Virus record (IMG/VR): IMGVR_UViG_3300017989_000126
Span: 1-60,652 of that record
DNA: 60,652 nucleotides
Origin: a virus
Taxonomy: Duplodnaviria; Caudoviricetes
Direction: 5' to 3' (one strand)
Below are positions 824 to 52,484 of this stretch, piece by piece. The notes under the pieces are model-generated. The model worked only from the letters and a program-made list of their open reading frames with translations. It did no database searches and was not told the DNA's origin. The position numbers and the translations under genes were made by a program. Within the stretch, counting starts at the first letter, position 1, and each line of letters begins with the position of its first letter.

Positions 824-1021
824 ATGTATGATGGAAGAACAGCAGAGCCAGCACAATTCAAGAGGATAACCATACCTTTAATTCGTAGAATTTACCCACA
901 ACTCATTGTCGGTAATGTTGTTGCTGTCCAACCATTGATGAGCAGTTTTAATTTACAAAGATACATTCAAGGCAGCTCGCCAAATAAAGAAAAAGCTAAT
1001 TGGAAGACCGAAGGATTCTAA
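824..1021 (+). CDS. Small protein resembling a gp23-type major capsid protein fragment, with C-terminal WKTEGF
   Basis: FKRITIPLIRRIYPQLIVGNVVAVQPL resembles the conserved IPLVRR..P.LIA..IV.VQP segment of T4-like capsid proteins. Confidence 0.6.
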   Translation: MYDGRTAEPAQFKRITIPLIRRIYPQLIVGNVVAVQPLMSSFNLQRYIQGSSPNKEKANWKTEGF

Positions 1022-1110
1022 TCAAACAACCGGGTTCTCTTAGGGCAATATTGGCTTAAAGTATTGCTAAATTCAGCATTTTTTGCTATGATATGTTGTG
1101 GAGAATTTCT

Positions 1111-1977
1111 ATGCTTAACAAAGTTTTAATTTGTGTAGTCGTTTTGTTGACAGTGATAATTGGTTTTGGCGTCTATGAAAAAGCCAAAAAAACCTTACCT
1201 TATCCTTACGATTATGTTCATGCACCTCCAAGTGCACTTAATCAGTTAAATTTGGAAACAATCACAGTTGAACCTGATCCTGAGCCTATCTGTATTCCCA
1301 AAGAGGTTTTGGAAGTTAATCGAATCAATAGTCAACTGAAAGGCATGGCTTGTAGCGGCATCAATGTTTATGTCTGGGAAGGCGGTTTTAAATTTCGCCT
1401 ATCAGGTAATCTTCGCTATGAGAAAGGGAAAAAATTTCGCATGACAGTTCGTTCTCTGTTTGGGAAAGAACTCGACCTTGGGTCTAATGATGAACAGTTT
1501 TGGTTTTGGTCTCGTCGAAGCAATGAACCCGGTTTATTCTACGCAAAACACGAAGATTATTACAAAACAAGGCTCAAAACCCCATTCAATCCCGTATGGA
1601 TCATGCACACTCTGGGAATTGACGAAATCGATGCAGAAGATGTCGAAATTGTTGATGAAAAAGACAAAGATGAGATCTTGGTTGTCAAAGAAGGCGTAAA
1701 TTCTATGGGAAAACCCATATTGACCACAACTTTTGTGAATCGATACACAATGAGAGTCACAAAGGTGCTAACAACAGATTTGAATGGAAAACCTTTAGCC
1801 TCTTCTGAAATTAAGAAATACAGCGGTAATTTCCCGATTGAAATCGTTTATGACTGGTTTGAAGAAAACAAAACCATGGAAATCAAGATTAAAGGACCAT
1901 GGGAAGGCGGAAAATCTAACCCGCTTCTTTGGGAGAGACCTAATATCAATCCAAAAACTGACATGGGTGTTGACTAA
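1111..1977 (+). CDS. Membrane-anchored hypothetical protein (possible LolA-like fold)
   Basis: GGAG RBS before ATG1111, N-terminal TM helix, DLGSNDEQFWFW motif. Confidence 0.6.
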   Translation: MLNKVLICVVVLLTVIIGFGVYEKAKKTLPYPYDYVHAPPSALNQLNLETITVEPDPEPICIPKEVLEVNRINSQLKGMACSGINVYVWEGGFKFRLSGNLRYEKGKKFRMTVRSLFGKELDLGSNDEQFWFWSRRSNEPGLFYAKHEDYYKTRLKTPFNPVWIMHTLGIDEIDAEDVEIVDEKDKDEILVVKEGVNSMGKPILTTTFVNRYTMRVTKVLTTDLNGKPLASSEIKKYSGNFPIEIVYDWFEENKTMEIKIKGPWEGGKSNPLLWERPNINPKTDMGVD

Positions 1978-1980
1978 ATT

Positions 1981-2350
1981 TTAGTTCATCAGAAATTTAA
2001 CACATTCATTGATTACATCTTTTTTTTGACAATCAAAATCACTTTCCCAAACAACTAAAATTTCAAATCCGTTTTTTCTAGCTTTTTCTAATTTATTAAA
2101 ATCTTTTTCCCATACTTCTTTCGCTGTCATATTCCACACTCGAATAAACTCATCTTCTTTAAAATATTTTGGATTTGCGTGCCAAATATTTCCGTTAAAT
2201 TCTATAACTTTTTGTCATCAACAATTACAAAATCAAAATTTGTATTTGTGCCACATCCATATTCGTGATTTAATTCTCCAAAATAAACCCTTTTATCTTG
2301 CAAACACAATCTGTTGTATAAATCCCAAAATAGTTTTTGAGATTTCTTAG
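1981..2350 (-). pseudogene. Truncated, frameshifted Vsr/DUF559-like endonuclease remnant
   Basis: Minus strand reads ..FDFVIVDDKK(frameshift in A-run ~2209)VIEFNGNIWHANP..WEKD..K...GFEILVVWESD..FLMN*; no start found. Confidence 0.65.
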
Positions 2351-2390
2351 AATAATTTTGTCGATTAAGAGTTCAGTAATATATAACACT

Positions 2391-4803: not shown

Positions 4804-6330
4804 ATGTGCATGTCTAATCTTGAATTAAATGCTGAGGAAATTTTAGAAAGCGCCATAGAAAAAAGCAGAGAGATCATGAACTCTCAGCCACAAGTAGCAG
4901 AAATTATCCTCAAACAACTTATCAAATGTAAACCAGATCACCCTGAAGGATTGCAACTTTTGGGATTATTGGAACATAGACTAGGCAAACATGCCGAAGC
5001 TATTGAAATCATTCAGGTTGCCATAGAAGTAGACCCGGAATGTGCTGAAAACCATAATAATATTGGGTTGGCCTATGCTTGTTTGGGCGAATATGAAAAA
5101 TCTATTGAACACATAGAAAAAGCTGTTGAGATGAAAACGGATCATTATGTTTTCCTCAATAATTTAGCTCTACAATATCGACAAGTTGGCAGATACGATG
5201 AGTCTATTGATACATTCCAAAAAGCTATCGATGCCAATAACACGCCGCAAATTTGGGGCAATCTTGGTGGTGTGTGGGGAGAATTGGGTAATCTCGAAAA
5301 ATCAGAAGAGTGTTTCATGAATGCTTTGGAAATTGATCCAAATTATCCTGCGGCTCATGTAGACATAGCTTTCATAAATCATCTAAGAGGAAATTGGGAA
5401 AAAGGATTTGAAGAATACGAATGGCGATTCGATCACTTTCCTCAACTTCAATTTTACAAAAAAGTCTATGACCAAGAAAAAAAATGGGATGGAAAAGCCG
5501 ACCTCAAAGGCAAAACAATTATTCTATACGGAGAACAAGGTCTGGGCGACACAATTCAGTTTGTTCGTTATGTAAAAGTTCTTAAAGAAAAAGGTTGTCA
5601 TGTTATTGTACATTGCCCAAGTTCTTTAAACGCTGTGATCTCCAGATGTGAAGGTGTTGATGAAATTGTCAATCGTGACATTGTCACAGGCAAAGGTGAT
5701 CCTTTGCCTGAATATGATTACCAATGTTCTTTATTGAGTTTGCCACATTTGCTTAAAGTGGTTGATGTAGGAACATCACCGTACATTTCACCTATAGTTA
5801 CTCTGAATACTAAAGAGCAATATCCTGACACATTCAACATAGGGATTTGCTGGGCAGGCAGCCCTGCACACCCCAAAGATGCAGAAAGGTCCATTAAGCT
5901 AAAACACTTCAAGCCTATTCATGATATACCTAATGTCAAGCTGTTCAGTCTTCAAGTTGACATGAGAAAAAGAAGTTACGTGAACACTCTTTCTAATTTA
6001 GATCTCACTGAAGATTGCGATGATATAAGAATTGTAGATATGACGAACATGATCCAGACATTTGATGATTCTGCAACAATCATTAGCGGCCTTGATCTTG
6101 TAATTAGTTGTGATACTGCATTGGTTCATTTAGCTGGTGCCATGGGTGTGCCTTGTTGGGCTTTAATTCCATACAGTCCTGATTGGCGGTGGGGAATTGA
6201 AGGCGATAAAACAAACTGGTATGAATCTTTGACATTGATACGTCAAAAAGAACGAGGTGATTGGACAGGTGTATTTGAGGAAGTAAAAGACCGACTTAAC
6301 AAAAACTTTTCTTTACCGGAGACAACATGA
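4804..6330 (+). CDS. TPR-repeat protein with GT9-like glycosyltransferase domain
   Basis: Multiple TPRs; EQGLGDTIQF, ICWAGS, DLVISCDTALVHLAGAMG, DWRW motifs. Confidence 0.85.
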   Translation: MCMSNLELNAEEILESAIEKSREIMNSQPQVAEIILKQLIKCKPDHPEGLQLLGLLEHRLGKHAEAIEIIQVAIEVDPECAENHNNIGLAYACLGEYEKSIEHIEKAVEMKTDHYVFLNNLALQYRQVGRYDESIDTFQKAIDANNTPQIWGNLGGVWGELGNLEKSEECFMNALEIDPNYPAAHVDIAFINHLRGNWEKGFEEYEWRFDHFPQLQFYKKVYDQEKKWDGKADLKGKTIILYGEQGLGDTIQFVRYVKVLKEKGCHVIVHCPSSLNAVISRCEGVDEIVNRDIVTGKGDPLPEYDYQCSLLSLPHLLKVVDVGTSPYISPIVTLNTKEQYPDTFNIGICWAGSPAHPKDAERSIKLKHFKPIHDIPNVKLFSLQVDMRKRSYVNTLSNLDLTEDCDDIRIVDMTNMIQTFDDSATIISGLDLVISCDTALVHLAGAMGVPCWALIPYSPDWRWGIEGDKTNWYESLTLIRQKERGDWTGVFEEVKDRLNKNFSLPETT

Positions 6331-7902: not shown

Positions 7903-7976
7903 ATGACCTCCGAAAAACTAATAGCTAAACTCTACTATACATAGTTAGGACGTAACAGTAAAGGGGTAAATAAACC

Positions 7977-8486
7977 ATGAAGTATCAAGAGAAAATGAAT
8001 CGATATGAAAAGAAGCAACTTCAGGAGAAAATTCTGGATGAAGCTTTGGCAGGCAAAGGGTTGTATCTTTACGAAAACAATTCCGATGCCGATTTAACAC
8101 TTCCTCGACCCACACAAAGTGGGAGGCGTGAAATTGGAGGAAGAGAACAATTTCAGGGTGATGACTACTATATGCAGTTAGTTCGTACAGGATTTCTGAG
8201 ATTGATTAAAGAACTCCAACCACCAACGCCAGCGGCACCTCCGCAAACAAACATTCAAGAACAAAATGAGGTAACAATGACAGAACAAAAACAAGAAAAG
8301 CTTATTCTGGATCAACCAGACACAGTTACAACTGAAGGAACTGTTGAGAATGTAGCTCAACCACAACAGTGCGATAAAGGCACAGAATGCTGTGGGGGAA
8401 CTGGACATGGGCAACCACAGCCAGAAGTTCTTCTCAATGAAGCTCCTGTTGATGACGATGACAGCTTCATGATCATTGAAGACTGA
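7977..8486 (+). CDS. Hypothetical protein
   Basis: 169 aa ORF followed by a terminator. Confidence 0.7.
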   Translation: MKYQEKMNRYEKKQLQEKILDEALAGKGLYLYENNSDADLTLPRPTQSGRREIGGREQFQGDDYYMQLVRTGFLRLIKELQPPTPAAPPQTNIQEQNEVTMTEQKQEKLILDQPDTVTTEGTVENVAQPQQCDKGTECCGGTGHGQPQPEVLLNEAPVDDDDSFMIIED

Positions 8487-12535: not shown

Positions 12536-12661
12536 GAGAGTACCAACTGGGCAAGGCATTGCTTGGTTGCAGGATGAATACACGTGGAAGTTACAGTCTT
12601 CTGAATGGACTGGGTCTTAGCGGACCATGCAGGGTTCAAATCCCTGCCATCCGAAATCTCC
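12535..12661 (+). ncRNA. tRNA-like structured RNA (non-canonical)
   Basis: T-arm GCAGGG-TTCAAAT-CCCTGC; variable-arm-like GGTC..GACC; anticodon-arm-like CAGTC..GACTG; GGATG/CATCC stem; extra 5' hairpin; outer GGAGA/TCTCC stem. Confidence 0.6.
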
Positions 12662-12800: not shown

Positions 12801-13481
12801 ATGGAACATTTCATCTATGCACTAAAACAACAAGGTAGCGAATTGCCTTTCTATATTGGAAAATCAAACAATCCAAAGAAGCGGAAAAAACGCCATCTTT
12901 ATGATGCAAAGAACTTGATGCTGAATTACCCAGTTCATAACAAATTGAGAAAGCTGTTAAGAGACGGACTTGGAATTGATCTTGAAATTCTGGAATCGAA
13001 GCTAACCGAAGATGAAGTTGATGATAGGGAGGTTTATTGGATTTCTTTTTATCGTACCAAAACCAAATTGTGTAATTTAGCCAATGGTGGAGAAGGCGGC
13101 AAAGGGTTGACCGAAGAGACAATTGAAAAAATAAAGAAAGCCAACATTGGACAAAAACGATCTGAAGAAACTCGAAAACGAATAAGTGATTCCCGTAAAG
13201 GGATTGTATTTTCAAAAGAACACAAACAGAATCTTTCAAAAGCACGGAAGAAAAGAATTGTAACTGAAGAAACTCGTCGGAAAACAAGTGAAACCTCTAC
13301 TGGTTCGATTAACATCAAGAAATATAAACTTACTGATCCAAACGGTGGGATTCACTTCACTGACAGAGGGTTGTCAGATTTTTGTCGCAAGAACAATTTA
13401 ACACCAGCTAATTTGTCAAAAGTTCTAAAGGGCGAACGCACACACCATAAAGGTTGGAGGATTGAATATGTCGAACCATGA
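12801..13481 (+). CDS. GIY-YIG homing endonuclease with NUMOD3 repeats
   Basis: FIYAL..FYIGKS, R/E/N catalytic pattern, NLANGGEG, SEETRKRIS repeats. Confidence 0.9.
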   Translation: MEHFIYALKQQGSELPFYIGKSNNPKKRKKRHLYDAKNLMLNYPVHNKLRKLLRDGLGIDLEILESKLTEDEVDDREVYWISFYRTKTKLCNLANGGEGGKGLTEETIEKIKKANIGQKRSEETRKRISDSRKGIVFSKEHKQNLSKARKKRIVTEETRRKTSETSTGSINIKKYKLTDPNGGIHFTDRGLSDFCRKNNLTPANLSKVLKGERTHHKGWRIEYVEP

Positions 13482-14646
13482 CCCCGCTGTTCGATCAATA
13501 TTAGATTCGGACTTATACAAATTTACAATGATGGCAGCAGTCTTGAAGCACTACGAAAACACACCGGTTCAGTATCGATTTAGCAATCGTCGGAAAGAAG
13601 GTAAATTCAATAATGCTTTTGTTTATGAATTTGAATCTGAAATTGATCGTCTTTGTGGATTAAAAGTAGAAGATAAAGAACTAGATTGGTTTTCTAAAAC
13701 CTGTCCTTTTCTCACGGATCAGTATTTCGAATTTCTGCGAAACTACCGTTTTAACAAAAATGAACTTAGATGGTCAGTTGAAGATGGTGAATTAAACCTG
13801 TCTGTCAATAGCTCATGGGAACTAGGTATTTTGTGGGAAGTACCTCTTATGAGCATAATTTCAGAATGCTTCTTTCGTACATGTGACACTGAATGGGAGT
13901 TTAATGTTCTTGAGCAAGAAAAAAGAATTCGAGACAAAGCTAAAATTCTAACCGATGTTACATTTGCAGACTTCGGCACTCGACGCCGAAGGTCTTATGA
14001 TGTTCAAGATTTGGTTGTAAAAACACTTGTGAATTGTGCTCCAAATTTTGTAGGCACAAGCAACGTCTCACTCGCCATGAAGCACAACACCAAGCCAATT
14101 GGAACTTTAGCACATGAGTGGATCATGGCGACCAGCGTTCTCATGGGACTTCGCCACGCCAACAAGTTTGCACTGGATGCTTGGAGTGAAGTATTCAACG
14201 GCGATTTGGGAATTGCATTAACGGACACTTATGGAAGCAAAGCTTTCTTCGAGGATTTTGACGGATATCTGGCTCGATTGTTTGATGGAGTTCGTCATGA
14301 TAGCGGCGATCCTTTTGAATTTGCCAGAAAAGCGATCACTCACTACAAGTCACTGGGAATCAATCCCATGTCAAAAACCATCGTGTTTAGCGACGGTTTG
14401 ACAGCCAAACTTGCTGCGGAAATCAACGAAAGATTCAAAGATGTCATCCGATGCTCTTTCGGCATCGGAACTCACTTCACGAATGATTTCCATAACAGCA
14501 AGGCTCTGAACATGGTCATCAAACTTTGGTCTTGTGAAGGGGTTCCACTGGTGAAGTTGGGAGATGACGAAGGGAAAGCCATTGGCGATCCTGATGCCGT
14601 TCGAGTTGCTCGATGGGTGTTCAACGACAAACCACTGGACAATTAA
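13468..14646 (+). CDS. pncB: Nicotinate phosphoribosyltransferase
   Basis: DLYKFTM, DFGTRRR, GTSN, GTLAHEW, LTDTY, RHDSGDP, FSDGL, FGIGT. Confidence 0.95.
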   Translation: MSNHDPAVRSILDSDLYKFTMMAAVLKHYENTPVQYRFSNRRKEGKFNNAFVYEFESEIDRLCGLKVEDKELDWFSKTCPFLTDQYFEFLRNYRFNKNELRWSVEDGELNLSVNSSWELGILWEVPLMSIISECFFRTCDTEWEFNVLEQEKRIRDKAKILTDVTFADFGTRRRRSYDVQDLVVKTLVNCAPNFVGTSNVSLAMKHNTKPIGTLAHEWIMATSVLMGLRHANKFALDAWSEVFNGDLGIALTDTYGSKAFFEDFDGYLARLFDGVRHDSGDPFEFARKAITHYKSLGINPMSKTIVFSDGLTAKLAAEINERFKDVIRCSFGIGTHFTNDFHNSKALNMVIKLWSCEGVPLVKLGDDEGKAIGDPDAVRVARWVFNDKPLDN

Positions 14647-14647
14647 A

Positions 14648-14977
14648 ATGGAACAACTTCTCTGTCACTTGCTTGGAGACTATCTCCTGCAAACATCATG
14701 GATGGCTTTGAACAAAAGCAAGCGATGGTGGCCTGCAATTGTTCATGTGTCAATTTACACAAGCGTGTTCCTGTTGTTGACAACAAGCATCCCGGCATTG
14801 CTTGTCATTGGCGGAACACACCTGCTGATTGATCACTATCAGTTTCCCAAGATTTGGTTCAATGCAGTTCGTGGAAAAGAGGATTCCCCGGAATGGTTTC
14901 TGATGTGGCTTTACGTCATTCAGGACAACTCTTGGCATCTGATCATTAACTTCTTGGCGTTGAGGTATCTGACATGA
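14648..14977 (+). CDS. DUF3307-like membrane protein
   Basis: HLLGDYLLQT, HxxIY, THxxID, DNSWH motifs. Confidence 0.75.
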   Translation: MEQLLCHLLGDYLLQTSWMALNKSKRWWPAIVHVSIYTSVFLLLTTSIPALLVIGGTHLLIDHYQFPKIWFNAVRGKEDSPEWFLMWLYVIQDNSWHLIINFLALRYLT

Positions 14978-16950
14978 ACAAATATGGATTTGTAAGAGTT
15001 ACTGCTGTTTCACCTCGGGTTTACATTGGCAATCCAGAACAAAACCTCTTCGAAGCACATGGTGAACTTGCTCGTTCAGACGATTCAGATATTATTTTGT
15101 TTCCTGAACTCAGCATGACAGGATACACTTGCGGTGATTTGTTTGGTCAGGAAAGTTTGACTAACAATGCGTTGAAAGAAACGGTTAGGTTAGCTGATGG
15201 TGTTGGCAACCAGTTGGTTGTTGTTGGATTACCATTTGTGTTTGAATCTAATCTCTACAACTGTGCTGCTGTCTTGAACAATGGTCGCATCGTGGGGATT
15301 GTCCCCAAGCAATATTTGCCCACCTACAAAGAGTTTTACGAAAAGAGGTGGTTTCAGGCTGGTGAAGGTCTACCAAACACAGAAGTTGAAATTGAAGGTC
15401 GTGCTGTTCTTTTTGGGCCGAATCTCCTATTCAGCTACGAAGGAGTCAAAGTTGGCATTGAAATTTGTGAAGATGTCTGGATGCCCATTCCACCTAGTTG
15501 TTATCACACTATTGCTGGTGCAAACGTCATCCTCAATCTCTCTGCCAGCAATGAGACCGTTGGAAAATCTGATTACCGCACAGATTTGGTGAAAAATCAG
15601 TCTGGTCGCTGCGTGTGTGCTTATGCATACGCCAGTTCCGGGCCAATGGAATCCACCTCTGATCTTGTGTTTGGTGGACATTCTCTAATCGCTGAAAACA
15701 GTCATATTCTGGCTGAGTCACCTCGTGTGGGCAAAGGTAATCACAGTGCATCTGTGATTACAGCAGATGTTGACTATGAAAAACTGAATCATGAGAGACG
15801 CTCATCTACGTCTTTCGGTGACTCTGCATCATGTGTCACTAATCACGACACAATTCCCATTGAACTCGTAAATCGTCCTGAAGTTGTTACTCCGATCAAA
15901 CGAGTGATTGCCAAACATCCATTTGTCCCAAGTGACAAAGAGCGGTTGCGGGATCGTTGTGAGGACATCTTCGGCATTCAGACAATGGGTCTGGTGGGTC
16001 GATTGGCCAACATCAGAGGTCCAATCAATATTGGAATCTCTGGTGGTCTCGACTCAACGTTGGCATTGCTGGTTGCCATCAAAGCCTGTGATCACTTCAG
16101 GTTTGATCACAGGCGAATTCAAGGCATCACCATGCCCGGATTCGGAACCACCAAGAAGACCAAGAAGAATGCCAAGAAACTGATGAAGGGTCTGGGGATT
16201 ACTCAGAAAGAAATAGACATCAGGCCGATGGCCCTTCAGGTGTTCAATGACATGGAACACACTCCATTTGGCATCGGCAGCACACCTTTGACTTTAGAAG
16301 ACCTTCAAGGTGGGCTTGAAAGTCTTGAACCGGGTGCTCAGGACTTGGTATTTGAAAATGTGCAGGCACGTGTCAGAACCCTGACGCTGATGTCTCATGG
16401 GTTTGTTCTGGGAACCGGTGATCTCTCCGAGCTTGCTCTGGGCTGGTGCACCTACAACGGTGACCACATGAGCATGTATAACGTCAACTGTTCGATCCCA
16501 AAGACTCTGGTCAAGTTCTTGGTGGAGTATGTTGCCAACAATGATCCTGCCTTCAAAAAGGTCAAAGATACGTTGTTGGATATTGTGGACACTGAAATCT
16601 CTCCAGAACTTTTGCCACCCGGCAAAGACGGAGAGATCGCACAGTCCACAGAAGACAAACTTGGGCCTTACGAACTGCACGACTTCTTCCTGAGTCACTT
16701 CATTCGCAATGGTTCAAGCCCTCAGAAGATTCTTCTTTTGGCTTGTCAGGCATTTGAAAGTGATTACGAGCCTGACTTCATCAAAGTAACTCTCATCACT
16801 TTTTTGAAGAGATTCTTTGCAAATCAGTTCAAAAGAAATTGTGTGCCAGATGGCCCAAAAGTTGGATCAGTGAGTCTTTCGCCTCGTGGCGATTGGCGAA
16901 TGCCTTCTGACGCTGATGTCAGCATGTGGATTAAGGAACTTGAAGAATGA
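14974..16950 (+). CDS. nadE: Glutamine-dependent NAD+ synthetase
   Basis: Nitrilase triad FPEL/EKRWF/EICED; SGGLDST; ENVQARVR; GDLSELALGW; SLSPRGDWRMPSD. Confidence 0.97.
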   Translation: MNKYGFVRVTAVSPRVYIGNPEQNLFEAHGELARSDDSDIILFPELSMTGYTCGDLFGQESLTNNALKETVRLADGVGNQLVVVGLPFVFESNLYNCAAVLNNGRIVGIVPKQYLPTYKEFYEKRWFQAGEGLPNTEVEIEGRAVLFGPNLLFSYEGVKVGIEICEDVWMPIPPSCYHTIAGANVILNLSASNETVGKSDYRTDLVKNQSGRCVCAYAYASSGPMESTSDLVFGGHSLIAENSHILAESPRVGKGNHSASVITADVDYEKLNHERRSSTSFGDSASCVTNHDTIPIELVNRPEVVTPIKRVIAKHPFVPSDKERLRDRCEDIFGIQTMGLVGRLANIRGPINIGISGGLDSTLALLVAIKACDHFRFDHRRIQGITMPGFGTTKKTKKNAKKLMKGLGITQKEIDIRPMALQVFNDMEHTPFGIGSTPLTLEDLQGGLESLEPGAQDLVFENVQARVRTLTLMSHGFVLGTGDLSELALGWCTYNGDHMSMYNVNCSIPKTLVKFLVEYVANNDPAFKKVKDTLLDIVDTEISPELLPPGKDGEIAQSTEDKLGPYELHDFFLSHFIRNGSSPQKILLLACQAFESDYEPDFIKVTLITFLKRFFANQFKRNCVPDGPKVGSVSLSPRGDWRMPSDADVSMWIKELEE

Positions 16951-17804
16951 ATACAGGATCGTTTTTTACCATTGGTAGCACTCACGTTGTTTGTGAAGAC
17001 TATGCCTTACATGGGGTCGCAGAAGATCCTTATGTGATTCTTTCTGATGGCTGCTCTAACGGAGGTGTGCGAATTGATACAGACTTTGGCTCTCGGCTAC
17101 TTTGCAAATCAGCCGAGAATCATTTGTCAATATTGCCATACAATTCATTTGGATTTAAAGAACGTGTCATTAGCACAACGGTGACACAAGTGCAAACTTA
17201 TTTCAACATGGATCTTGCATGCCTTACTGCTACTTTGCTGTTGGCTAGAAAATATGATGACTTCATTTACACCATGTTAATTGGAGATGGATATATTGGG
17301 GGAAAACGACGTGATGGACGATGGATGCTTTATGAAATAGAATATGAAAAAGGAGCACCTTATTACCTTAAATACAGTTGGAATCCCAAAGACAAAGAGG
17401 CTTATTTTAATCGATTTGGAAGCATTGGAACACTTAGAACCTTTTCTTGGAGAGAAGGTGGAGATATTGAAACATCCAGTATGGAATTTGATCTGAAAGA
17501 CGATCATCCAGAGCATTTTGAATTCGATTTTAAAATTGATGAATATGAATTTGTATTCATTGCTTCTGATGGATTGAGTCGTTTTTATCATCAGGCAACT
17601 ACGCCAGATAAATCAATGATTCCCATTCCGATAACAACCGTTGTGCCTATTTTGTATGGATTCAAAGGATATCAAACGTCATTTGTCGAAAGGCAAATGC
17701 ATTGGGTCATGAACACCAAAAAGCCAAGATCACTTTCTAAAACACTGGGCGTTGATGTAAAGTGTTCAGATGATTTCAGCACCGGAGTAATTCACTGTGG
17801 CTAA
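16947..17804 (+). CDS. PP2C-like protein phosphatase (TerY-P type)
   Basis: G-x-x-H..CED, LSDGCS, IGDG, ASDG, DD motifs. Confidence 0.8.
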   Translation: MNTGSFFTIGSTHVVCEDYALHGVAEDPYVILSDGCSNGGVRIDTDFGSRLLCKSAENHLSILPYNSFGFKERVISTTVTQVQTYFNMDLACLTATLLLARKYDDFIYTMLIGDGYIGGKRRDGRWMLYEIEYEKGAPYYLKYSWNPKDKEAYFNRFGSIGTLRTFSWREGGDIETSSMEFDLKDDHPEHFEFDFKIDEYEFVFIASDGLSRFYHQATTPDKSMIPIPITTVVPILYGFKGYQTSFVERQMHWVMNTKKPRSLSKTLGVDVKCSDDFSTGVIHCG

Positions 17805-18408
17805 ATTTGCGATTTTTGGAGGATCTTTTGATCCTCCCACATATGCACATAAAATGGCTGGAGAACTTGTCTATGCTGAAACAGACATAGATCAATTCTG
17901 GTACATGCCTTGTTGCAGCCACAAATTCAATAAAGACTCTGAAGATTCTTGTCATCGATTAACCATGGTAGAAAGAATGGTTTATCAGATAAACGAGAAC
18001 TACCAAGGATTTCCTTTTCGTGAATGCACTTACGAAATCGACAACAAAACCAAAGGCCATCTAATTGAAACGATGGAAGCTTTAGAAAAAGAAAATCCAA
18101 AAGATGAATTTGTGATCGTTGTGGGTTCAGATTGTGCCAATGATATCAAGAAAAAATGGCATCGTGGCAAGGAACTTATCGAACGATATCCATTCATTGT
18201 GTTGAAAAGAAGTGGATACGAATTGTTAGCTTCTTGGCCATACGAAAAACCAAATCAGGTTTTGGAATTTGGTGTAAGCTATAGCTCAACAACGCTTCGT
18301 AAAGCTTTATCAGAAGGCGATTTTGAGCACGCTCAACGAAGACTCTATCCTGCAATTTTCAATTACATTAAGAAGAACAAACTTTACAGTCAGGAAAACC
18401 AGACGTAA
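17797..18408 (+). CDS. nadD: Nicotinate-nucleotide adenylyltransferase
   Basis: FGGSFDPPTYAH, VGSD, W, SSTTLR. Confidence 0.9.
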   Translation: MAKFAIFGGSFDPPTYAHKMAGELVYAETDIDQFWYMPCCSHKFNKDSEDSCHRLTMVERMVYQINENYQGFPFRECTYEIDNKTKGHLIETMEALEKENPKDEFVIVVGSDCANDIKKKWHRGKELIERYPFIVLKRSGYELLASWPYEKPNQVLEFGVSYSSTTLRKALSEGDFEHAQRRLYPAIFNYIKKNKLYSQENQT

Positions 18409-18441: not shown

Positions 18442-20154
18442 ATGAAACTTACCATTCGAGGCACTGGTGATAAAGTCAATATCACCAAGACACATGTAGT
18501 CGCCAAAGGTGGTGAGGGTGTCATCTATATTAAAGATGGCGTTGTCTACAAAATCTGTCATGCTGGGAAAATGATTCCCGATGGAAAATTTCAAGAACTG
18601 GCTGTTCTCAATCATCCCAACATCATCAAGCCAGAGCAAGTTTTACTGGATTCTAAAGGAAAACCAGTTGGCTATACCATGAAGCTGGTTCCTAATTCAG
18701 TGCCACTTGCTCAAATTCTAACAAAATCTTACCGAGATCGAGAGAACGTTACATTCGATCAAATGGGTAAGTTAATACAGGATATTCGTGATGGCATTGA
18801 ACACATCCACTCCAAGGACATTCTCCAAGTAGATGGTAATGAGATGAACTACATGGTTTCGTTGGATTACGAAACTGTGTCATTCATTGATGTGAATAGT
18901 TTTCAAACCAAACATTATCCAGCAGAGGCTTTAATGCTAAGCGTGCGAGATTGGCACGTTGAAAAGAAAAACGGAGTCTACATTTGGACAGAGCTGAGTG
19001 ATTGGTTTTCTTTCGCAATTATCTCGTTCTACATGTGGACCGGAATTCATCCCTTCAAGGGAGCACATCCTCGTTTCAAAAATGTCAAAACGAGGATGGA
19101 AGATCAAATGAAGGCAAATGTTTCAGTTTTAAACTCTGAAACAAAATACCCTGCTGCTGCTGTTTATCCTTTTGATGTCATTCCTGATGTTTACATGCAG
19201 TGGTACAAAGCTCTGTTTGAACGTGGCGAACGACATCCGGCCCCACAGGACTTTCATGGCAAAATCCTTCTTGTCGCCAAAGTCAAAGAAATCAGTGGCA
19301 GTGATAACTTCGAAATCAAAGAAATTCATGATTTTGGGGAAATGCTGGTTGGTTTTATAGGTCGCCCCGGAACAGAGGTTTCTATTGGACCTGAACATGT
19401 GTTTGTAAATCAGGCCCCTAAGCCAAAACCATACAAGAAAATCCGTGCAGGCATTACAAATGTGATGCAAATTCCTGTCTCAGCTCATCTTGAGAACAAT
19501 ATCGTTCATTTGACAAATCTAAAAACTCAGGAAAAAATCGATTATCAAGGGAATGGAAGTGATCTGATGAGTTGCGAGGGGCGTTTGTACGTTCAAAGCA
19601 ATAATCGAATCGTTGAAATTCAATTCATTGAATCTGGCAAAAACATTATGGCGGCACCGAAAGTCGTTTGTGATATTTTGCCCAATGCAACGCAGATGTT
19701 TCAGGGAACAATCATCCAGTATCTGTTCGAAGGATACTTTGTCTCTGTATTCCCAAAATCAGGCATTGCTCAACAGTTCCATATTAAAGAACTTGATGAA
19801 TATCAAATTACTGAAGCGAAATATGAAAATGGGGTTCTGATGGTTGTTGGAATTTCCAAAGGCAAGTATGATCGCTTCGTGATCCGTTTTGAAGAAAGAT
19901 GGGGCAATTATGAAATAGCCCGTAAAATTGAAGACATCATTCCCACTGGTTTGAACTTCACAGTTCTGGAGAATGGGGTTTGTGTTTGTATTACGGAAGA
20001 AGAGAAAATCGAATTGTTCTCTTCCCGTTCGGGATCGCAAAATGTTAAATCGATCTCTGACCCGGTTATAGAAAGCGACATGAGGTTATGTCGAGTTGGG
20101 TCACAAGTTATGTTTGCCAAAGGCAACAAGCTGTTCAAGCTGTCTATGAAATAA
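18442..20154 (+). CDS. Ser/Thr protein kinase (TerY-P type) with beta-rich C-terminal domain
   Basis: KGGEG, VYK, DGNEMN, FIDVNSFQ, SDWFSF, GIHPFKG. Confidence 0.85.
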   Translation: MKLTIRGTGDKVNITKTHVVAKGGEGVIYIKDGVVYKICHAGKMIPDGKFQELAVLNHPNIIKPEQVLLDSKGKPVGYTMKLVPNSVPLAQILTKSYRDRENVTFDQMGKLIQDIRDGIEHIHSKDILQVDGNEMNYMVSLDYETVSFIDVNSFQTKHYPAEALMLSVRDWHVEKKNGVYIWTELSDWFSFAIISFYMWTGIHPFKGAHPRFKNVKTRMEDQMKANVSVLNSETKYPAAAVYPFDVIPDVYMQWYKALFERGERHPAPQDFHGKILLVAKVKEISGSDNFEIKEIHDFGEMLVGFIGRPGTEVSIGPEHVFVNQAPKPKPYKKIRAGITNVMQIPVSAHLENNIVHLTNLKTQEKIDYQGNGSDLMSCEGRLYVQSNNRIVEIQFIESGKNIMAAPKVVCDILPNATQMFQGTIIQYLFEGYFVSVFPKSGIAQQFHIKELDEYQITEAKYENGVLMVVGISKGKYDRFVIRFEERWGNYEIARKIEDIIPTGLNFTVLENGVCVCITEEEKIELFSSRSGSQNVKSISDPVIESDMRLCRVGSQVMFAKGNKLFKLSMK

Positions 20155-21724: not shown

Positions 21725-21756
21725 CAAAAAGAAAATAAACGAAAGGATTATAAATC

Positions 21757-25508: not shown

Positions 25509-25706
25509 ATGATGAAAACTTTTACACAATGGCTTGAAGCAAGATTGGCAGAAGAGGATGGAGGCGGTGGCGGTGGCGGTGGTACGGACACTGGTGCCAT
25601 AGCTACGCATCCTTCACCTTTGGGTTGCCAATGTAACTGTGGAACAAAAAAAAAGAAGAAAAAGACTAAGTCACGATCAAACTTTGGGTCTAGTGACAAT
25701 TCCTAA
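25509..25706 (+). CDS. Small Gly/Lys-rich putative head protein
   Basis: MMKTFTQWLEARLAEE start, poly-Gly, poly-Lys. Confidence 0.65.
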   Translation: MMKTFTQWLEARLAEEDGGGGGGGGTDTGAIATHPSPLGCQCNCGTKKKKKKTKSRSNFGSSDNS

Positions 25707-34612: not shown

Positions 34613-34678
34613 TGTAATACCCTCCCTTGTGAACCGTATTTAGGAATTCTCAACCTAGTATTGCTACATAAATTTATA

Positions 34679-35245
34679 ATGGCAATAAGAAATCCTGACG
34701 GTTCAGTATACAGAACATCAAATAGTCTACAACAATTTGATCCCAACAATCCAGAACATGATTTGTTCAATATTTGGGATGAAGAGGTCATCGAAATTGG
34801 TGGATCACCTTTGTATTATTATGAAGTGTTCATCAACATGAATACAATTGATGAACTCTATGTTGAAGACAGAGGAAAGCTTTGGTCTAATTGTCCAAAG
34901 TGCATTTATGGATACTACGAACCAATTCCAGCACAGAATTATATGACAGTCTTCGGCATCGACTCACCTGATGAAATGATGTTCGAAGTGAACTACCGTC
35001 ATGCACTGCGGGAAATTGGACATGCTCCTAAAATTGGTTCACGTATTTTCACGCCACATAAAAGAGAGAATTGGGTAGTCATTCAAAGAAATCTTGAAGT
35101 TTACAAAATGTGGGGAGAACTTCGCATTCAACTAATGTGCCAGAGATTTCAGGAATCTCTTACAACTGGCGAAGGCAAAGTTACTCAACCATCTCCAAAC
35201 TTTAAAATCAATGATATAAAAGATCTTGGTGGCGGGAAATGTTAA
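34679..35245 (+). CDS. Neck/head-closure protein (T4 gp14-like)
   Basis: IEIGG..YY, DELYVED, FGIDSPDE, PKIG; structural gene context. Confidence 0.7.
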   Translation: MAIRNPDGSVYRTSNSLQQFDPNNPEHDLFNIWDEEVIEIGGSPLYYYEVFINMNTIDELYVEDRGKLWSNCPKCIYGYYEPIPAQNYMTVFGIDSPDEMMFEVNYRHALREIGHAPKIGSRIFTPHKRENWVVIQRNLEVYKMWGELRIQLMCQRFQESLTTGEGKVTQPSPNFKINDIKDLGGGKC

Positions 35246-35251
35246 CCATCA

Positions 35252-35656
35252 TCAAAACCCTTCTTCTTTCCAGTTAAAATCAACTTTTACATTAGATAAC
35301 GGAGGAAGAGGAGGTAGTTCTGGCACTGGCACAAAAGCTCTGACATTTTCAGAAACTTGATTTCTAATATCTTGAACCAAATTTCCTTCTATTGGCCAAT
35401 CGTCATTTGGCATATTTGGAAGTTCATCTATTACTTCCATGTGTATTTCGCCATCTTCATCCAAAGATATTTTGTAAGTGACTGGTTCAGTATTGGTAAT
35501 TCTTCCATCTTCATTTACTGACATGGAAACGCTTTGAACAATTGTTCGTGTAGAAGAACTTGGTTCTTGTGTGCGAGCAATATCTTCTTCAGAAAAGAAT
35601 CTATTATCATTAGCACTTGGTCCCCAAATAACTTTAAGTTGATCAAACCAACTCAT
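35252..35656 (-). CDS. Hypothetical protein with C-terminal WKEEGF
   Basis: Start reassigned to MSWFDQ; ends FNWKEEGF*. Confidence 0.65.
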   Translation of the reverse strand: MSWFDQLKVIWGPSANDNRFFSEEDIARTQEPSSSTRTIVQSVSMSVNEDGRITNTEPVTYKISLDEDGEIHMEVIDELPNMPNDDWPIEGNLVQDIRNQVSENVRAFVPVPELPPLPPLSNVKVDFNWKEEGF

Positions 35657-39488: not shown

Positions 39489-40037
39489 ATGGCTGATATG
39501 GGAATAGGCAGGCTAGGTGCCCCCACAACCATCATGAAAAGAAAGTTCCGATGGAAATTCCAAATACAAACACCACTTGGGTTCGTTCCTGAATGGTGGT
39601 GTAAAATTGGATCACGTCCACAATTGGACATAGATGAAACAGAAGTCAACTTCCTTAACCAAGCAACTTGGTTCCCCGGAAAGGCTAGATGGCAACCCCT
39701 TTCGATCACTTACATAGACAACAATGAATCGGGCGATGCGGGTCTACAAGGTTTGTGGAACCTCATTGCTTCTGTTTACAACTTTCAAACAAACGAATTA
39801 GGTCAGACAGAAAAATTAGGATGGAATAGCACTGGCATTCTAACAATGTACGATGGATGCGGTGGGCTCATGGAAACATGGCAATTAGGATCTTTATGGC
39901 CTCAGTCAATTAACTGGGGTGATTTAGATTACGCAGTGTCTGAAGAAGCAACAATAGACGTGACTTTTAGATATTCTGAGGTCCGACACTTCTCTTCTTG
40001 CGGACCAACACCATTTGGAATATGTCAAGGGTGTTAA
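39489..40037 (+). CDS. Tail tube protein, paralog 1 (gp19-like)
   Basis: KRKFRW, RP, PGK..W, YDGCG, WP..WGDLDY, RY. Confidence 0.85.
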   Translation: MADMGIGRLGAPTTIMKRKFRWKFQIQTPLGFVPEWWCKIGSRPQLDIDETEVNFLNQATWFPGKARWQPLSITYIDNNESGDAGLQGLWNLIASVYNFQTNELGQTEKLGWNSTGILTMYDGCGGLMETWQLGSLWPQSINWGDLDYAVSEEATIDVTFRYSEVRHFSSCGPTPFGICQGC

Positions 40038-40081
40038 TACATCATAAATAGTTCTAATAGAACAACCATACAGGAGTAAAA

Positions 40082-40687
40082 ATGGCTAACAAACCTATGG
40101 GAATCGGCATTATCGGCCAGCCGGATATCGTCTTTAAAAGACAATTCCGTTGGACTTTTGAAATCCAAGGTTTTTGTAACAACGAAAAAAACGTAGTTCC
40201 AGAACACTTTGTGATGACGACAGGCCGTCCAAACCTCAGTATTGAGGAAACACAAATCGACCACTTGAACGCCAGAACATGGATTCCGGGTAAAGCTCAG
40301 TGGGAAACTATCACAGTAACATATATCGATGTGGCACATGACCAAATGCGAATGCTTTGGAACTGGCTTGCAACAACCCATGATTTCACTGATCCAGTAA
40401 ATCTTACCATGGGTAATAAGCGAGACTGGCATGCAGTCGGTGTTCTGAACATGTACGATGGTTGCGGTGTTCTTCTGGAAACTTGGGAAATGAGAAACAT
40501 GTGGCCAACCGCCGTAAACTTCGGCGAGCTTGACTACTCAAGTTCTGAATACGCAACAATTGAATTAACGCTTCGTTACTCAGATGTGGCTTACAGATCA
40601 CTGTGTCCAGAATTCACTCCAGAAGCTTGCTGCTCTGGTTGTGGTACTGGTACGACTGTTACCCAGCCAAGTGTCGATTTTGTTTAA
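40082..40687 (+). CDS. Tail tube protein, paralog 2
   Basis: Same motifs; FGELDYS, IELTLRYS. Confidence 0.88.
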   Translation: MANKPMGIGIIGQPDIVFKRQFRWTFEIQGFCNNEKNVVPEHFVMTTGRPNLSIEETQIDHLNARTWIPGKAQWETITVTYIDVAHDQMRMLWNWLATTHDFTDPVNLTMGNKRDWHAVGVLNMYDGCGVLLETWEMRNMWPTAVNFGELDYSSSEYATIELTLRYSDVAYRSLCPEFTPEACCSGCGTGTTVTQPSVDFV

Positions 40688-40718
40688 AAATTGATACAGG
40701 TATAGATAAGGAGATAAA

Positions 40719-41345
40719 ATGGCTATACCTATGGGTATTGGCAATTTGGGTTTCGAAAACAATGTGTTCAAACGGAAATTCCGTTACACCGTTGAGTTGC
40801 AAAATATTTGTGGCGGTCAACAGGTTCCAAAACATTATGTGAAAATGGCTGACCGCCCAAATATTTCAATTGAACCAACTGAGATCAATTTCCTCAACGC
40901 TAAAAGCTGGATTCCGGGCAAAGCATCATGGGAAACCATTACTTTGACTTACTATGATGTTGCCAACACATATGAATTGAAACCACTATATGACTGGTTA
41001 GCATCAGTCTACAATTTTGCTGATCCTCGTGGTATTTTTGGAGGTTTACAACAAGGCTCTCAAAAGAATGATTATGCAGCAACTGCTATCATATCTCTTT
41101 GGGATGGTTGTGGAGAAGAATTAGAAAGATGGACAATTAGAGATGCTTGGCCAGAAGCAGTGAATTTTGATTCCCTCGATTACAGTGATTCCGAAGCAGT
41201 CACTATCGAATTGACACTGCGTTACTCCGATGTATTTTACCAACACATGTGTCCAAATTACATTCCTCAAAACTGCTGTTCGCCTTGTGGTGGCATAGGA
41301 GGGGGTTTGACTTTAATAAACGTTGAAAGAACTCCGCTTCGTTAA
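40719..41345 (+). CDS. Tail tube protein, paralog 3
   Basis: Same motifs. Confidence 0.85.
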   Translation: MAIPMGIGNLGFENNVFKRKFRYTVELQNICGGQQVPKHYVKMADRPNISIEPTEINFLNAKSWIPGKASWETITLTYYDVANTYELKPLYDWLASVYNFADPRGIFGGLQQGSQKNDYAATAIISLWDGCGEELERWTIRDAWPEAVNFDSLDYSDSEAVTIELTLRYSDVFYQHMCPNYIPQNCCSPCGGIGGGLTLINVERTPLR

Positions 41346-41373
41346 ACGATCATTGTCGTTGGTTACTATATTG

Positions 41374-41400
41374 AGGGGTAGCTTATGCTGCCCCTTTTTT
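41374..41400 (+). terminator. Intrinsic terminator
   Basis: AGGGGTAGC..GCTGCCCCTTTTTT. Confidence 0.7.
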
Positions 41401-41416
41401 ATCTATGGAGGCTCAA

Positions 41417-41938
41417 ATGGGTCGTAGAATGAGCATTGACTTTGGCGATAAGTTGTGCAAAAGAAAACATCGTTGGCTATTTCAGCTTACCAGCAATAAT
41501 GGCGAAGTAATTGGAGATGGATCGCTTAACACATTACCTCCACTTAAAACATCCCGACCAACTTTAGTTTTCAAAGAAATGTCAGCACAACATCTTAACG
41601 AAGAGGTGTTTTACCCGGCAAAGCCTGACTGGAAGCCAATTCAAATCACATTATACGACATTAAAACAAATGGAAACCACCCTGTATTCGAATGGCTGAA
41701 AAGCCTTTATGATCCAGAAGATCAAGCAAAGTGGTCAGCTCCTGTTGACAGTGGTTTCATTAGACCAAATGCAACTTTGACTTTATTTGATGGTTGCGGT
41801 GAAGTTGTGGAAAGATGGGTCTACCAAAGTGTCTGGCCTCAGACAGTGGATTTTCAACAACTAGACATGGGCTTAAGCGAATATGTTACATGTGATTTGA
41901 TTTTAAGATACGTCAGAGCTTACATTGAGGAATTTTGA
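41417..41938 (+). CDS. Tail tube-like protein, paralog 4
   Basis: KRKHRW, RP, FDGCG, WP..F..LD, LRY; GGAGG before ATG41417. Confidence 0.8.
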   Translation: MGRRMSIDFGDKLCKRKHRWLFQLTSNNGEVIGDGSLNTLPPLKTSRPTLVFKEMSAQHLNEEVFYPAKPDWKPIQITLYDIKTNGNHPVFEWLKSLYDPEDQAKWSAPVDSGFIRPNATLTLFDGCGEVVERWVYQSVWPQTVDFQQLDMGLSEYVTCDLILRYVRAYIEEF

Positions 41939-50776: not shown

Positions 50777-50835
50777 ATTGAACCTCTGCAAAAAATTTGT
50801 GTCCTTGAGTAACTTATACTCTCAAGAGAATTATC

Positions 50836-51477: not shown

Positions 51478-51482
51478 GCAAG

Positions 51483-51767
51483 ATGCTTGATGAAAAAGCT
51501 TACGAACTGATTCGCTCTTGGAGAAGGGGTGAAATAAATGGAAATCAGTTTGATTATCGATTACAACTACTAGGTGTGACAGAAGCTTATTGCAGATCTG
51601 TCACAAAAGAAAAAGATGCTGAATGTATTCGAGCAGTTGTCAAAGAAGCCGCTGTTTTGGCTTTTGGGACAATGTTGTTTGTCAGCTTTATTTTCAAAAG
51701 CGGAGATTTAAGACTCGTTGAAAAACGGGAGAATCAAAGATACATTATGAACATCATTCGAATCTGA
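51483..51767 (+). CDS. Hypothetical protein
   Basis: ORF with one hydrophobic segment. Confidence 0.5.
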   Translation: MLDEKAYELIRSWRRGEINGNQFDYRLQLLGVTEAYCRSVTKEKDAECIRAVVKEAAVLAFGTMLFVSFIFKSGDLRLVEKRENQRYIMNIIRI

Positions 51768-51941
51768 ACTTGTAACAGTCAATAAAACTTCTCTTACTTG
51801 CGGATCGAGCCCCACTACACTCCACTTATCATCTGCAAGACTTTCCAACCATACTCTTGTTTTCCCTCCCTCCGGGAAGGATTTAATAACAGCGTTTTTT
51901 GATAAAGAACGGCTGAATCTTTTATAAGGTGAAATTGCCAT
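51708..51941 (-). CDS. Hypothetical protein
   Basis: ATG 4 nt after TATATA. Confidence 0.5.
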   Translation of the reverse strand: MAISPYKRFSRSLSKNAVIKSFPEGGKTRVWLESLADDKWSVVGLDPQVREVLLTVTSSDSNDVHNVSLILPFFNES

Positions 51942-51955
51942 GCTTTATATAGCAA

Positions 51956-52120
51956 TCAAAAACCCTCTTTCTTCCAAGGGACATTGATCTTTCTGCGGCG
52001 TTTTAATTCGTTGTCGATAGCTTTAATTTCTGGCTTTAATTGTCCTAGCGTATTATGACGAATAAGCACTTTCAACGTTTGTAAAAGCTCTTTTGTGGAA
52101 TATAAATGAAGCCCTTCCAC
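51956..52120 (-). CDS. Small protein ending WKKEGF (tandem paralog 3)
   Basis: GTG start overlaps the upstream TAG. Confidence 0.7.
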   Translation of the reverse strand: MEGLHLYSTKELLQTLKVLIRHNTLGQLKPEIKAIDNELKRRRKINVPWKKEGF

Positions 52121-52287
52121 TAAAACCCCTCTTTTTGCCAAACAATTATATTTTCTCTTCGCTTCAATTCGATACGAATTTCCTGTACATGCTTTGCTAA
52201 AATACCAGACATATCTTCGCACATCAAATAAGCCTTGAGCCTACGTTGCAATTCTTCTGTTGGCTCAAACAACAAAAGAGATCGCAT
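52120..52287 (-). CDS. Small protein ending WQKEGF (tandem paralog 2)
   Basis: TGATG coupling; ELKRR motif. Confidence 0.7.
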   Translation of the reverse strand: MRSLLLFEPTEELQRRLKAYLMCEDMSGILAKHVQEIRIELKRRENIIVWQKEGF

Positions 52288-52484
52288 CAAAAACCTTCTT
52301 CTTTCCAAGAAAGCTTTTTCTTAGGTTTTTGAAAACAATTTTTAATTCTGTTATGTCGCAACATAAGTTCGGCAGATATAGCCGCTGCTTTATCTTCAGG
52401 AAGATTAGTATAATCTTTCCATTGCAACGACCTAATCAGGTCACCGATTGGCACATGAGAAAGGTTCATTTTTGAACAAGCCAT
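52287..52484 (-). CDS. Small protein ending WKEEGF (tandem paralog 1)
   Basis: ELMLR motif and shared tail. Confidence 0.7.
   Translation of the reverse strand: MACSKMNLSHVPIGDLIRSLQWKDYTNLPEDKAAAISAELMLRHNRIKNCFQKPKKKLSWKEEGF

Follow-up and report, generated by a model that had tools for sequence, protein, structure and literature searches.

We have analysed a short peptide, W-x-x-E-G-F-COOH, that closes five small open reading frames (ORFs) in a stretch of viral DNA, IMG/VR record IMGVR_UViG_3300017989_000126. The stretch, here called the window, is the entire 60,652-base record. The same C-terminal peptide, hereafter the tag, ends 67 distinct ORFs of 35-253 amino acids (aa) on ~30 related viral contigs (3.27 Mb fetched), and it is a lineage-wide feature of a large clade of giant T4-like phages that includes the window. 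The bodies that carry it are diverse, and those that can be recognised are all short excerpts of the major capsid protein or, in one case, of the tail sheath protein. With moderate confidence, we lean towards the view that the tag is a portable C-terminal docking or sorting handle for one common receptor.

The five tagged genes of the window are the following.

824..1021, plus strand: P0001, 65 aa, ends ...KANWKTEGF; tag codons 1001-1018, stop TAA 1019-1021
35252..35656, minus strand: P0002, 134 aa from the ATG at 35656, ends ...VDFNWKEEGF; tag 35255-35272, stop TGA 35252-35254
52287..52484, minus strand: P0005, 65 aa, gene 1 of a triplet, ends ...KLSWKEEGF, stop TGA
52120..52287, minus strand: P0004, 55 aa, gene 2 of the triplet, ends ...IIVWQKEGF, stop TAG
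51956..52120, minus strand: P0003, 54 aa, gene 3 of the triplet, ends ...NVPWKKEGF, stop TGA

The ends of these ORFs are exactly those read in the original prediction, which was made from the letters of the window (ANWKTEGF, FNWKEEGF, VPWKKEGF, IVWQKEGF and LSWKEEGF, each directly before its stop), and the synonymous codon variation (GAA/GAG, GGA/GGG/GGT, TTC/TTT) and the use of TAA, TGA and TAG that it described for the five copies are confirmed. As open reading frames, two triplet genes span 52120-52308 and 51956-52222, which is probably too long. The stop of P0005 overlaps the next ATG at 52287 (TGATG) and that of P0004 overlaps a GTG at 52120 (TAGTG); translation of genes 2 and 3 probably begins at these two codons, and the real proteins of the triplet are therefore of 65, 55 and 54 aa. 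For P0002 the most probable start is the ATG at 35656 and not position 35680, which gives 134 aa and matches the length of the database record.

Six W..EGF strings are found in the six-frame translation of the window. Five of them stand directly before a stop and are preceded by 60-140 open codons, while the sixth (19262-19279, minus strand) has just 1 open codon ahead of it and belongs to a noise frame. EGF followed by a stop occurs exactly 5 times in this translation, each time as the W[KQ]xEGF-stop of a tagged ORF. The DNA pattern TGGAARNNNGARGGNTTYTRA has 4 matches in the window against a mean of 0.00 in 100 dinucleotide-preserving shuffles; the fifth copy, with CAA and TAG, falls outside this pattern. 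Across seven tag-bearing records (728 kb), W..EGF adjoins a stop in 38 of its 41 six-frame occurrences. A chance origin is ruled out by the shuffles, the six-frame counts and this stop adjacency. All ORFs of at least 35 aa in the seven records were also examined, a set unbiased by the tag search. EGF is the commonest final tripeptide in five of the seven records. Given the other key positions, the last residue in this set is F in 37 cases and L in 1, position -2 is G in 37 of 37, position -3 is E in 37 and D in 2, and position -6 is W in 37 and N in 1.

The codons of the tag vary freely. Glu is encoded by GAA 20 times and by GAG 17 times, Gly by all four of its codons (15/7/11/6) and Phe by TTC 22 times and TTT 17 times; AAA is as frequent as AAG, and all three stop codons occur after the tag. 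Such even synonymous usage in records with a G+C content of 40-51% means that the copies are not conserved as a DNA repeat. Around the five window sites the flanks have nothing in common, and the synonymous sites differ. A repeated DNA element or mobile cassette was ruled out, since synonymous sites vary both within and between genomes and the flanks are dissimilar. Taken together, the free synonymous variation and the 37:1 preference for F over L show that the tag is selected as a peptide and at the extreme C-terminus, and the earlier claim to this effect is borne out by the codon evenness and by the 38 stop-adjacent cases out of 41. Rfam has zero matches in the whole window, and thus neither an intron nor a known RNA explains the tagged gene ends. 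The T4 late-promoter consensus TATAAATA is absent from the window, and no promoter motif that could be used came out of a crude comparison of upstream k-mers.

The tail consensus is E-x-[VI]-[ND]-W-K-K-E-G-F-COOH, with W-x-x-E-G-F-COOH as its core. In the 67 tagged ORFs W, G and F were fixed by the search pattern. Of the other positions, -7 holds N or D in 55 ORFs and -8 holds V or I in 36; K is found at -5 in 39 and at -4 in 33, and -3 has E in 63 and D in 4. When IMG/VR was scanned with an exact pattern, 42 stretches were obtained, and 13 of them have the tag at the end of an open frame of 36 or more codons; runs of tagged ORFs were seen in these stretches, with five in L109, three in L106 and three in L093. 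A looser scan of whole records gave 25 matches in all five records where the tag was first found (10 of them in one 239-kb record) and 12 matches in three of five records chosen as relatives of the window's tail sheath protein. Eight of these 12 are in G005, the sheath of which is 81% identical to that of the window. All 37 whole-record matches end in TGA or TAA, and a reversed-pattern control gave 1 match in the same ten records. Two more scans added ~20 contigs, and a pattern scan of bacterial genomes gave 2 matches, both at chance level and in poor frames. The tagged genes lie in variable spots, often in tandem, translationally coupled arrays. An LWKREGF-stop in a 7-codon frame is common to ten unrelated small viral contigs (L078, L081, L086, L089, L094, L097, L098, L112, L115 and L116); it comes from a DNA segment that another phage group has conserved, and its match to the pattern is accidental.

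The phage group to which the window belongs can be read from its structural genes. The window encodes a T4-type tail sheath stabiliser (gp15), a tail sheath protein and a T4 baseplate protein. A search of IMG/VR with its sheath protein gave 76 relatives, 60-90% identical, the contigs of which reach 459 kb. The capsid protein of the close relative G005 has 389 relatives in IMG/VR and, in a large protein collection, 2,871 relatives at an expected value (E) of 1e-10 or below among 8,000 candidates scored; each of the best 120 of those 2,871 has an identity of 80% or more, and their contigs reach ~630 kb. The window is therefore a fragment of a giant T4-like environmental myovirus. Its DNA is present in sequencing runs labelled as sediment and seawater metagenomes. 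Searches with tblastn found no homologs of the five tagged proteins near the sheath gene of the 76 relatives, and no tag there either.

The bodies of the 67 tagged ORFs, with the tails removed, fall into 50 BLAST clusters, in agreement with the earlier statement that the tag is portable across unrelated bodies. When 40 tagged ORFs were scanned, Gp23 was the only Pfam name obtained (4 ORFs), and major head protein was the only PHROG assignment found more than once. From four full capsid proteins of the clade a profile was built. Eleven of the first 49 tagged ORFs match it (E <1e-3), and over the whole set of 67 the number is 15. The matches lie in three segments of the capsid protein, at positions ~49-111 (N-arm), 245-304 (spine) and 416-485 (C-terminal strands), the second of which comprises a strand and the start of the spine helix, RKLKAxW..EAQQDL. 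The full capsid proteins of the clade end in ...ANF[IV][IV], without the tag. The principal loci with excerpts are listed here, together with the bearers of a second tail described below.

L163 (G005) 18936-19881, L082 6060-7054 and L233 2274-2893: mini-operon of small overlapping capsid-excerpt genes, each tagged
L185 (G006) 7966-8217: tagged ORF of 84 aa with the tail-sheath core motif (NPIVQ...WGQ..L), in a five-gene array
P0168, P0171, P0174, P0189, P0193, P0199, P0221, and G003 244431-244643 (L162 1363-1575): second-tail proteins

The two or three genes of this conserved mini-operon follow the order N-arm, spine-helix and C-terminal segment of a T4-type capsid protein, an arrangement that resembles a 'mini capsid P-domain' split into pieces. 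The tagged ORFs of G005, three in a row and overlapping, keep the capsid order at a distance of 5 kb from an intact 488-aa capsid gene; the N-arm-then-spine pair is also present in G010 and in five further contigs. The G005 pieces have 66% DNA identity to the capsid gene over only 113 nucleotides (nt) and are otherwise detectable only as protein (blastn is silent), and for this reason the excerpts are old genes, not fresh duplicates. The tagged ORF of G006 is identical to residues 647-669 of the window sheath at 12 of 23 positions (pairwise E 3e-6; phmmer E 6e-4 in a set of 8 records), so the excerpts extend beyond the capsid protein.

Miniproteins of the N-arm type are abundant. Their family profile finds 640 cluster representatives at E <=0.001 among 1.84 billion proteins; of the best 150 representatives, 129 are no longer than 230 aa and 37 end in the tag. 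This abundance, together with the strain changes in P0002 given below, indicates that the tagged genes are real genes. A second recurrent tail, ...K-K-K-x-W-R-x-I-x-D-P-W-E/Q-P..., is found on N-arm proteins of other lineages, and it also closes a capsid-like miniprotein of G003, a relative that is free of the tag. The occurrence of a second tail on capsid-excerpt miniproteins suggests that tails are exchangeable modules matched to the lineage. The N-arm family profile aligns weakly (E 0.04) to residues 96-133 of T4 gp23, a segment that presumably overlaps Gol, the part of gp23 that activates the Lit protease through EF-Tu.

P0001 belongs to this family. It matches positions 2-32 of the 376 of Pfam Gp23 (E 1e-4; 22.3 bits, under the cut-off of 24.4), PHROG 138 major head protein (E 7e-5) and positions 53-96 of a hidden Markov model of the lineage's capsid proteins (E 1.8e-14), and it aligns with six other tagged N-arm miniproteins. 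P0001 is an excerpt, taken from the N-arm (Gol-like region), of a major capsid protein of the T4 type, and no capsid protein itself. It had been described as a capsid-like fragment, which is right; it is one of a conserved class of capsid and sheath excerpts that bear the tag. P0004 was aligned by hhalign to the tagged spine family A2 with a probability of 78% over 21 columns (RRLKAY... against RKLKAxW...), and its body is probably derived from the spine-helix segment of the capsid protein; the alignment of P0003 to the same family is confined to the tag. The original division into three body types, a capsid-like fragment, an acidic protein and a tandem triplet, still describes the window, although the types are not wholly unrelated, P0004 being probably a member of the capsid-excerpt class as well.

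P0002 has no relative among 5.8 billion proteins, where its sole match is itself. It has no Pfam or PHROG family, its look-alikes in the Atlas are all below 0.9, and its Atlas model has a predicted local distance difference test score (pLDDT) of 0.42; P0002 is a true ORFan, acidic and probably disordered. A strain variant differs from P0002 by 10 synonymous and 6 conservative changes, with zero changes within the tag, a pattern of purifying selection on this gene. P0002 fills a variable spot between the conserved gene at 34661-35245 and gp15, and in relatives this spot holds a LAGLIDADG-like or glycosyltransferase-like gene instead. Strain variants in two seawater runs have a 1196-nt insertion just past the P0002 stop (35230/35238), and one of the two also has a 933-nt insertion at 47167 (47167/47170). 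These insertions mark additional variable spots.

Since the tag needs a free end and is portable, we read it as a handle. In this proposal W-x-x-E-G-F-COOH would act only as the free C-terminal end of a protein, and would deliver differing small accessory bodies (~35-250 aa) to a single common receptor. As a first guess, itself a tentative one, this receptor may be the assembling prohead or the capsid interior, in which case the tag would be a C-terminal counterpart of the capsid-targeting sequence (CTS) of T4 or of the encapsulin peptides. We rank this receptor first because of the T4 internal proteins, the encapsulin peptides and the likeness of x-x-Glu-Gly to prohead-protease sites. A hub acting on whatever a capsid- or sheath-like bait has bound is a second and somewhat less probable guess, and a protease, for which the tag would be a timed degron, is a third and more doubtful one.

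The nature of the excerpts has led us to consider a more speculative scheme, which we regard as unlikely. The excerpts of virion proteins would be decoys for host pattern-recognition defences, and the tag would couple these baits to one hub. The baits would be free-standing copies of conserved segments that are exposed to sensors: from the capsid protein its N-arm/Gol region, spine helix and C-terminus, and from the sheath its core motif; a hub of the phage or of the host would sequester, modify or destroy whatever the bait catches, and the non-capsid bodies would be coupled to it too. The scheme is suggested by the fact that these bodies are the most conserved pieces of virion proteins and that host sensors are reported to read capsid; host sensing of capsid protein together with EF-Tu is reported in a recent preprint (bioRxiv 10.64898/2026.01.04.697583). 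If true, these phages would have a modular counter-defence of an adaptor-like kind, encoded in the genome, in which baits can be exchanged while the handle stays constant.

Several observations weigh against a docking handle with a common receptor. No gene family tracks the tag in ORF clustering of 8 fragmentary records, and the neighbours of the tagged loci differ (an RNA ligase, a 2H phosphoesterase, sugar-nucleotide enzymes, a UvrD-like helicase); other locus-specific genes near the arrays encode a DnaJ-like protein and a GT9-like glycosyltransferase. None of 80 capsid loci has a tagged ORF within 3 kb of the capsid gene, so position lends no support to a role in head assembly. The tag is absent from two 340-kb relatives, G003 and G004, in which the whole records were searched with the looser pattern, so it is dispensable for the virion plan. 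Finally, stop-start overlaps are unusually frequent: 19 of the 39 tagged ORFs have one, compared with 127 of 897 other genes. The same holds for TGA stops, which close 30 of the 39 tagged ORFs and 363 of the 897 others (Fisher p 8e-6). This RNA-level contribution is real and, for the E-G pair, inseparable from a function of the peptide.

Candidate partners were sought among the genes of the window and its relatives. The only TPRs in the window are those of the gene at 4804-6330, which has homologs in G005 and in the tag-free G003, while in G008-G010 only its glycosyltransferase part is found. The ORF at 42946, named as a TPR protein in the original prediction, is a family-2 glycosyltransferase with no TPR match. 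No Hsp70 or Cpn60 was found in G001, G002, G003, G005 or G008. No family-B DNA polymerase (PF00136) was found in G002, G005, G007, G008 or G009, of which G002 is judged 91% complete; these giants with T4-like heads therefore do not use a T4-type replicase. The idea that the tag is a sliding-clamp tail was rejected, given the lack of a family-B polymerase in these 5 records, the basic character of the tail and the lack of any tagged ORF longer than 253 aa.

The RNA-level signals have an explanation of their own. The codons for K-E-G form a Shine-Dalgarno-like AARGARGG, 6 nt before the overlapping ATG, and the tag might be a translational-coupling cassette in which GARGG is the Shine-Dalgarno sequence, UUY and UGA are spacer and stop before an overlapping AUG, and the peptide is a by-product. 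Besides the overlap and TGA counts, the next same-strand start lies at -30 to +15 nt in 30 of 39 tagged ORFs, compared with 290 of 642 gene pairs overall, and AAG-GAG-GGN is a perfect Shine-Dalgarno core. However, 9 of the 39 lack a start within 15 nt. Among these are P0001, behind which lies a gap of 71 nt, and P0002, which has a convergent neighbour, and the original prediction was right that a ribosome-binding site does not fit these two copies. Phe is preferred over Leu by 37:1 though UUR would be an equally good spacer, Trp stands at -6 in 37 of 38 cases, GAA is as common as GAG and AAA as AAG, and 280 other upstream genes in tight pairs show no preference for E-G at -3/-2. A downstream ribosome-binding site, which had been put forward as a possible full explanation, is thus a partial contributor (the 19 overlaps), and as the sole cause it is largely refuted; we regard the cassette reading as decidedly improbable. 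Our conclusion is that selection acts on the peptide, and that the codons which spell it serve coupling as a convenient extra. A related proposal keeps the peptide and places its action in the ribosome: W...EGF with UGA would slow or modulate release and tune re-initiation, like known arrest peptides. The strict stop adjacency (38/41), the excess of TGA, seen also in 15 of 20 non-overlap cases, and the frequent coupling of the downstream gene all agree with such a signal. Yet all three stops occur, several bearers have no downstream gene, and folding of the mRNA behind three window copies revealed no conserved structure, which leaves this proposal very unlikely.

Three other explanations were considered. 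The tag could be an intrinsic end-cap, a one-turn helix closed by Gly with Phe on Trp, that stabilises tiny proteins or shields their C-terminus against exoproteolysis or tail-specific degradation. In the Schellman C-cap geometry a helix turn is closed by Gly and a hydrophobic residue packs back, and the spacing W(-6)...E(-3) G(-2) F(-1) resembles it, and in 55 of 67 tails position -7 is N or D, both good N-cap residues; all bearers are small, many are probably poorly folded (as P0002, with its pLDDT of 0.42), and no partner emerged from the clustering of co-occurring ORFs. A generic stabiliser is nevertheless unlikely to be limited to one phage clade, with G003 and G004 lacking it despite similar small ORFs and bacterial genomes showing only the two chance-like matches; we consider an end-cap improbable. 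An enzyme that cuts or joins at N/D (-7) or E (-3), such as a prohead protease or a peptide ligase that links the successive capsid pieces, would make the tag a processing or ligation signal. Prohead proteases of the T4 type cut after Glu in L/I-x-E; all 8 tags of G005 read W-[VI]-K-E-G-F, which fits an aliphatic-x-Glu site, position -3 is E or D in 67 of 67, the N/D preference at -7 would suit the other site, and consecutive tagged ORFs give the N-arm, spine and C-terminal pieces in the order of the capsid protein. Position -7 is variable, however, being P, V and S in the window triplet; most genomes have K or Q at P3; the arrays that were annotated have no neighbouring gene for a ligase, a cyclase or a radical-SAM enzyme, and most bearers are not capsid pieces, so that we give processing a very small probability. 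Smallest of all is the probability that the tag has no function of its own and is inherited from one ancestral gene end, spread by a mobile DNA cassette or due to chance. The triplet genes are neighbours and maybe paralogs, and tagged genes lie in variable spots, one of them beside an HNH gene; the hyperplastic regions of T4-type phages do contain promoter-stem-loop cassettes. Against this stand 50 body clusters without detectable similarity, tag DNA that varies at nearly every synonymous site within single genomes, the age of the G005 capsid pieces (66% DNA identity over 113 nt), and the window counts, shuffles and stop adjacency that exclude chance.

Other features of the window are listed below. 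Its auxiliary genes encode CTP synthase, ribonucleotide reductase, NAD synthase, NAPRTase, an enzyme of the CCA-adding/poly(A) polymerase type, a Ser/Thr kinase, a PP2C phosphatase, two SPFH proteins, a sensor kinase of the ethylene-receptor type and an RNA ligase.

395..817, plus strand: HNH/endonuclease VII-like ORF of the homing-endonuclease type, ending 6 nt 5' of P0001
395-817, 25677-26264, 12801-13481 and 32239-33366: four genes of the homing-endonuclease type
12559-12655, plus strand: tRNA-Cys predicted by ARAGORN, 97 nt, anticodon ACA
13462-18408 and 23753-24214: NAD salvage/synthesis cluster, with NAPRTase, glutamine-dependent NAD synthase, a cytidylyltransferase-like (NMNAT-type) gene and a Nudix hydrolase
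39489-41938, plus strand: four tandem paralogs of 177-208 aa, directly 3' of the sheath gene
53082-54521, minus strand: sensor histidine kinase with an ETR1_N N-terminal domain (E 3e-25) and PAS, HisKA and HATPase domains

The ORF upstream of P0001 matches PHROG 1035 endonuclease VII (E 6e-10) as well as HNH PHROGs; it has a paralog at 25677-26264 and homologs in G005 and G006. The four homing-endonuclease-type genes comprise two HNH/EndoVII-like paralogs, one GIY-YIG gene with NUMOD motifs and one gene with an HNH-associated repeat. The tRNA-Cys is doubtful, or is a tRNA with an intron, as Rfam finds no tRNA in the window. The NAD cluster is interleaved with a PP2C phosphatase gene, and behind the cluster come the Ser/Thr kinase (18442-20154) and the two SPFH paralogs (20165-23340). 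The tandem paralogs behind the sheath gene, copies of which are present in G005, G003 and G010, are probably multiplied genes of the tail-tube type. The kinase of the ethylene-receptor type is an odd cargo for a phage.

The original prediction knew of no named system for the tag, and we found none in Pfam, PHROGs or the literature. None of six tag strings appears in the literature searched, supplementary files being outside its scope, and the same search gave nothing relevant on capsid-fragment decoys, on conserved C-terminal motifs of small phage proteins or on truncated copies of gp23. The tag would belong with the terminal targeting and docking peptides, with a real chance of something more unusual. 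C-terminal docking tails that are read by partners include the tip of SSB, the tails of T7 gp2.5 and gp4 and the clamp tails of T4 gp43, gp33 and gp55. Like these, the tag stands at the extreme C-terminus, has a terminal aromatic residue with a free carboxylate and is borne by small phage proteins. Unlike these acidic tails, it has a basic character, with K at -5 in 39 and at -4 in 33 of the 67 ORFs, and it is found on no replication protein and on no ORF longer than 253 aa.

The cargo-loading peptides of encapsulins are C-terminal and rich in Gly, Ser and Leu, and they bind a pocket of the HK97-fold shell formed by the N-terminal arm or helix and the P-domain. The tag likewise is short, C-terminal and present on unrelated proteins, and the tagged capsid excerpts reproduce the shell elements that form this pocket. 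It differs from encapsulin peptides in its consensus and in that its bearers include pieces of the shell protein itself. The excerpts also recall Gol: a review places this EF-Tu-binding stretch of 29 residues within the first quarter of gp23 and describes it as the most conserved part of that protein (PMC3014915). The P0001 family reproduces the most conserved N-terminal stretch of T4-type capsid proteins in the same way; Gol, however, is part of a full capsid protein, whereas the stretch in the P0001 family is a free-standing protein of 60-150 aa with a tail of its own. This link between the tag and capsid or sheath excerpts was unexpected. It touches on the conservation of Gol, on whether the Gol-like region is an EF-Tu ligand, and on how phages answer host sensors of core virion proteins.

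In practical terms, the regular expression for the tag pulls a class of 'dark matter' miniproteins out of giant phage genomes, and one peptide would serve to fish for the partner that these have in common. If the tag directs packaging, it would also be a ready-made handle for loading cargo into large capsids. The closest parallel is with the internal proteins of T4, diverse small accessory proteins encoded at variable loci that have only a terminal CTS in common (PMC3012670). The tag is similarly one short terminal peptide, found on 67 ORFs with 50 body clusters, in variable spots and arrays, and like the protease site of the CTS it holds x-x-Glu followed by a small residue. Unlike the CTS, which is N-terminal and is cut off after Glu, the tag is C-terminal and needs a free end, and the two sequences are unrelated. 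The CTS is one classical case of such a peptide; the tag would be a second, C-terminal and sequence-unrelated example, in an abundant and almost unstudied clade.

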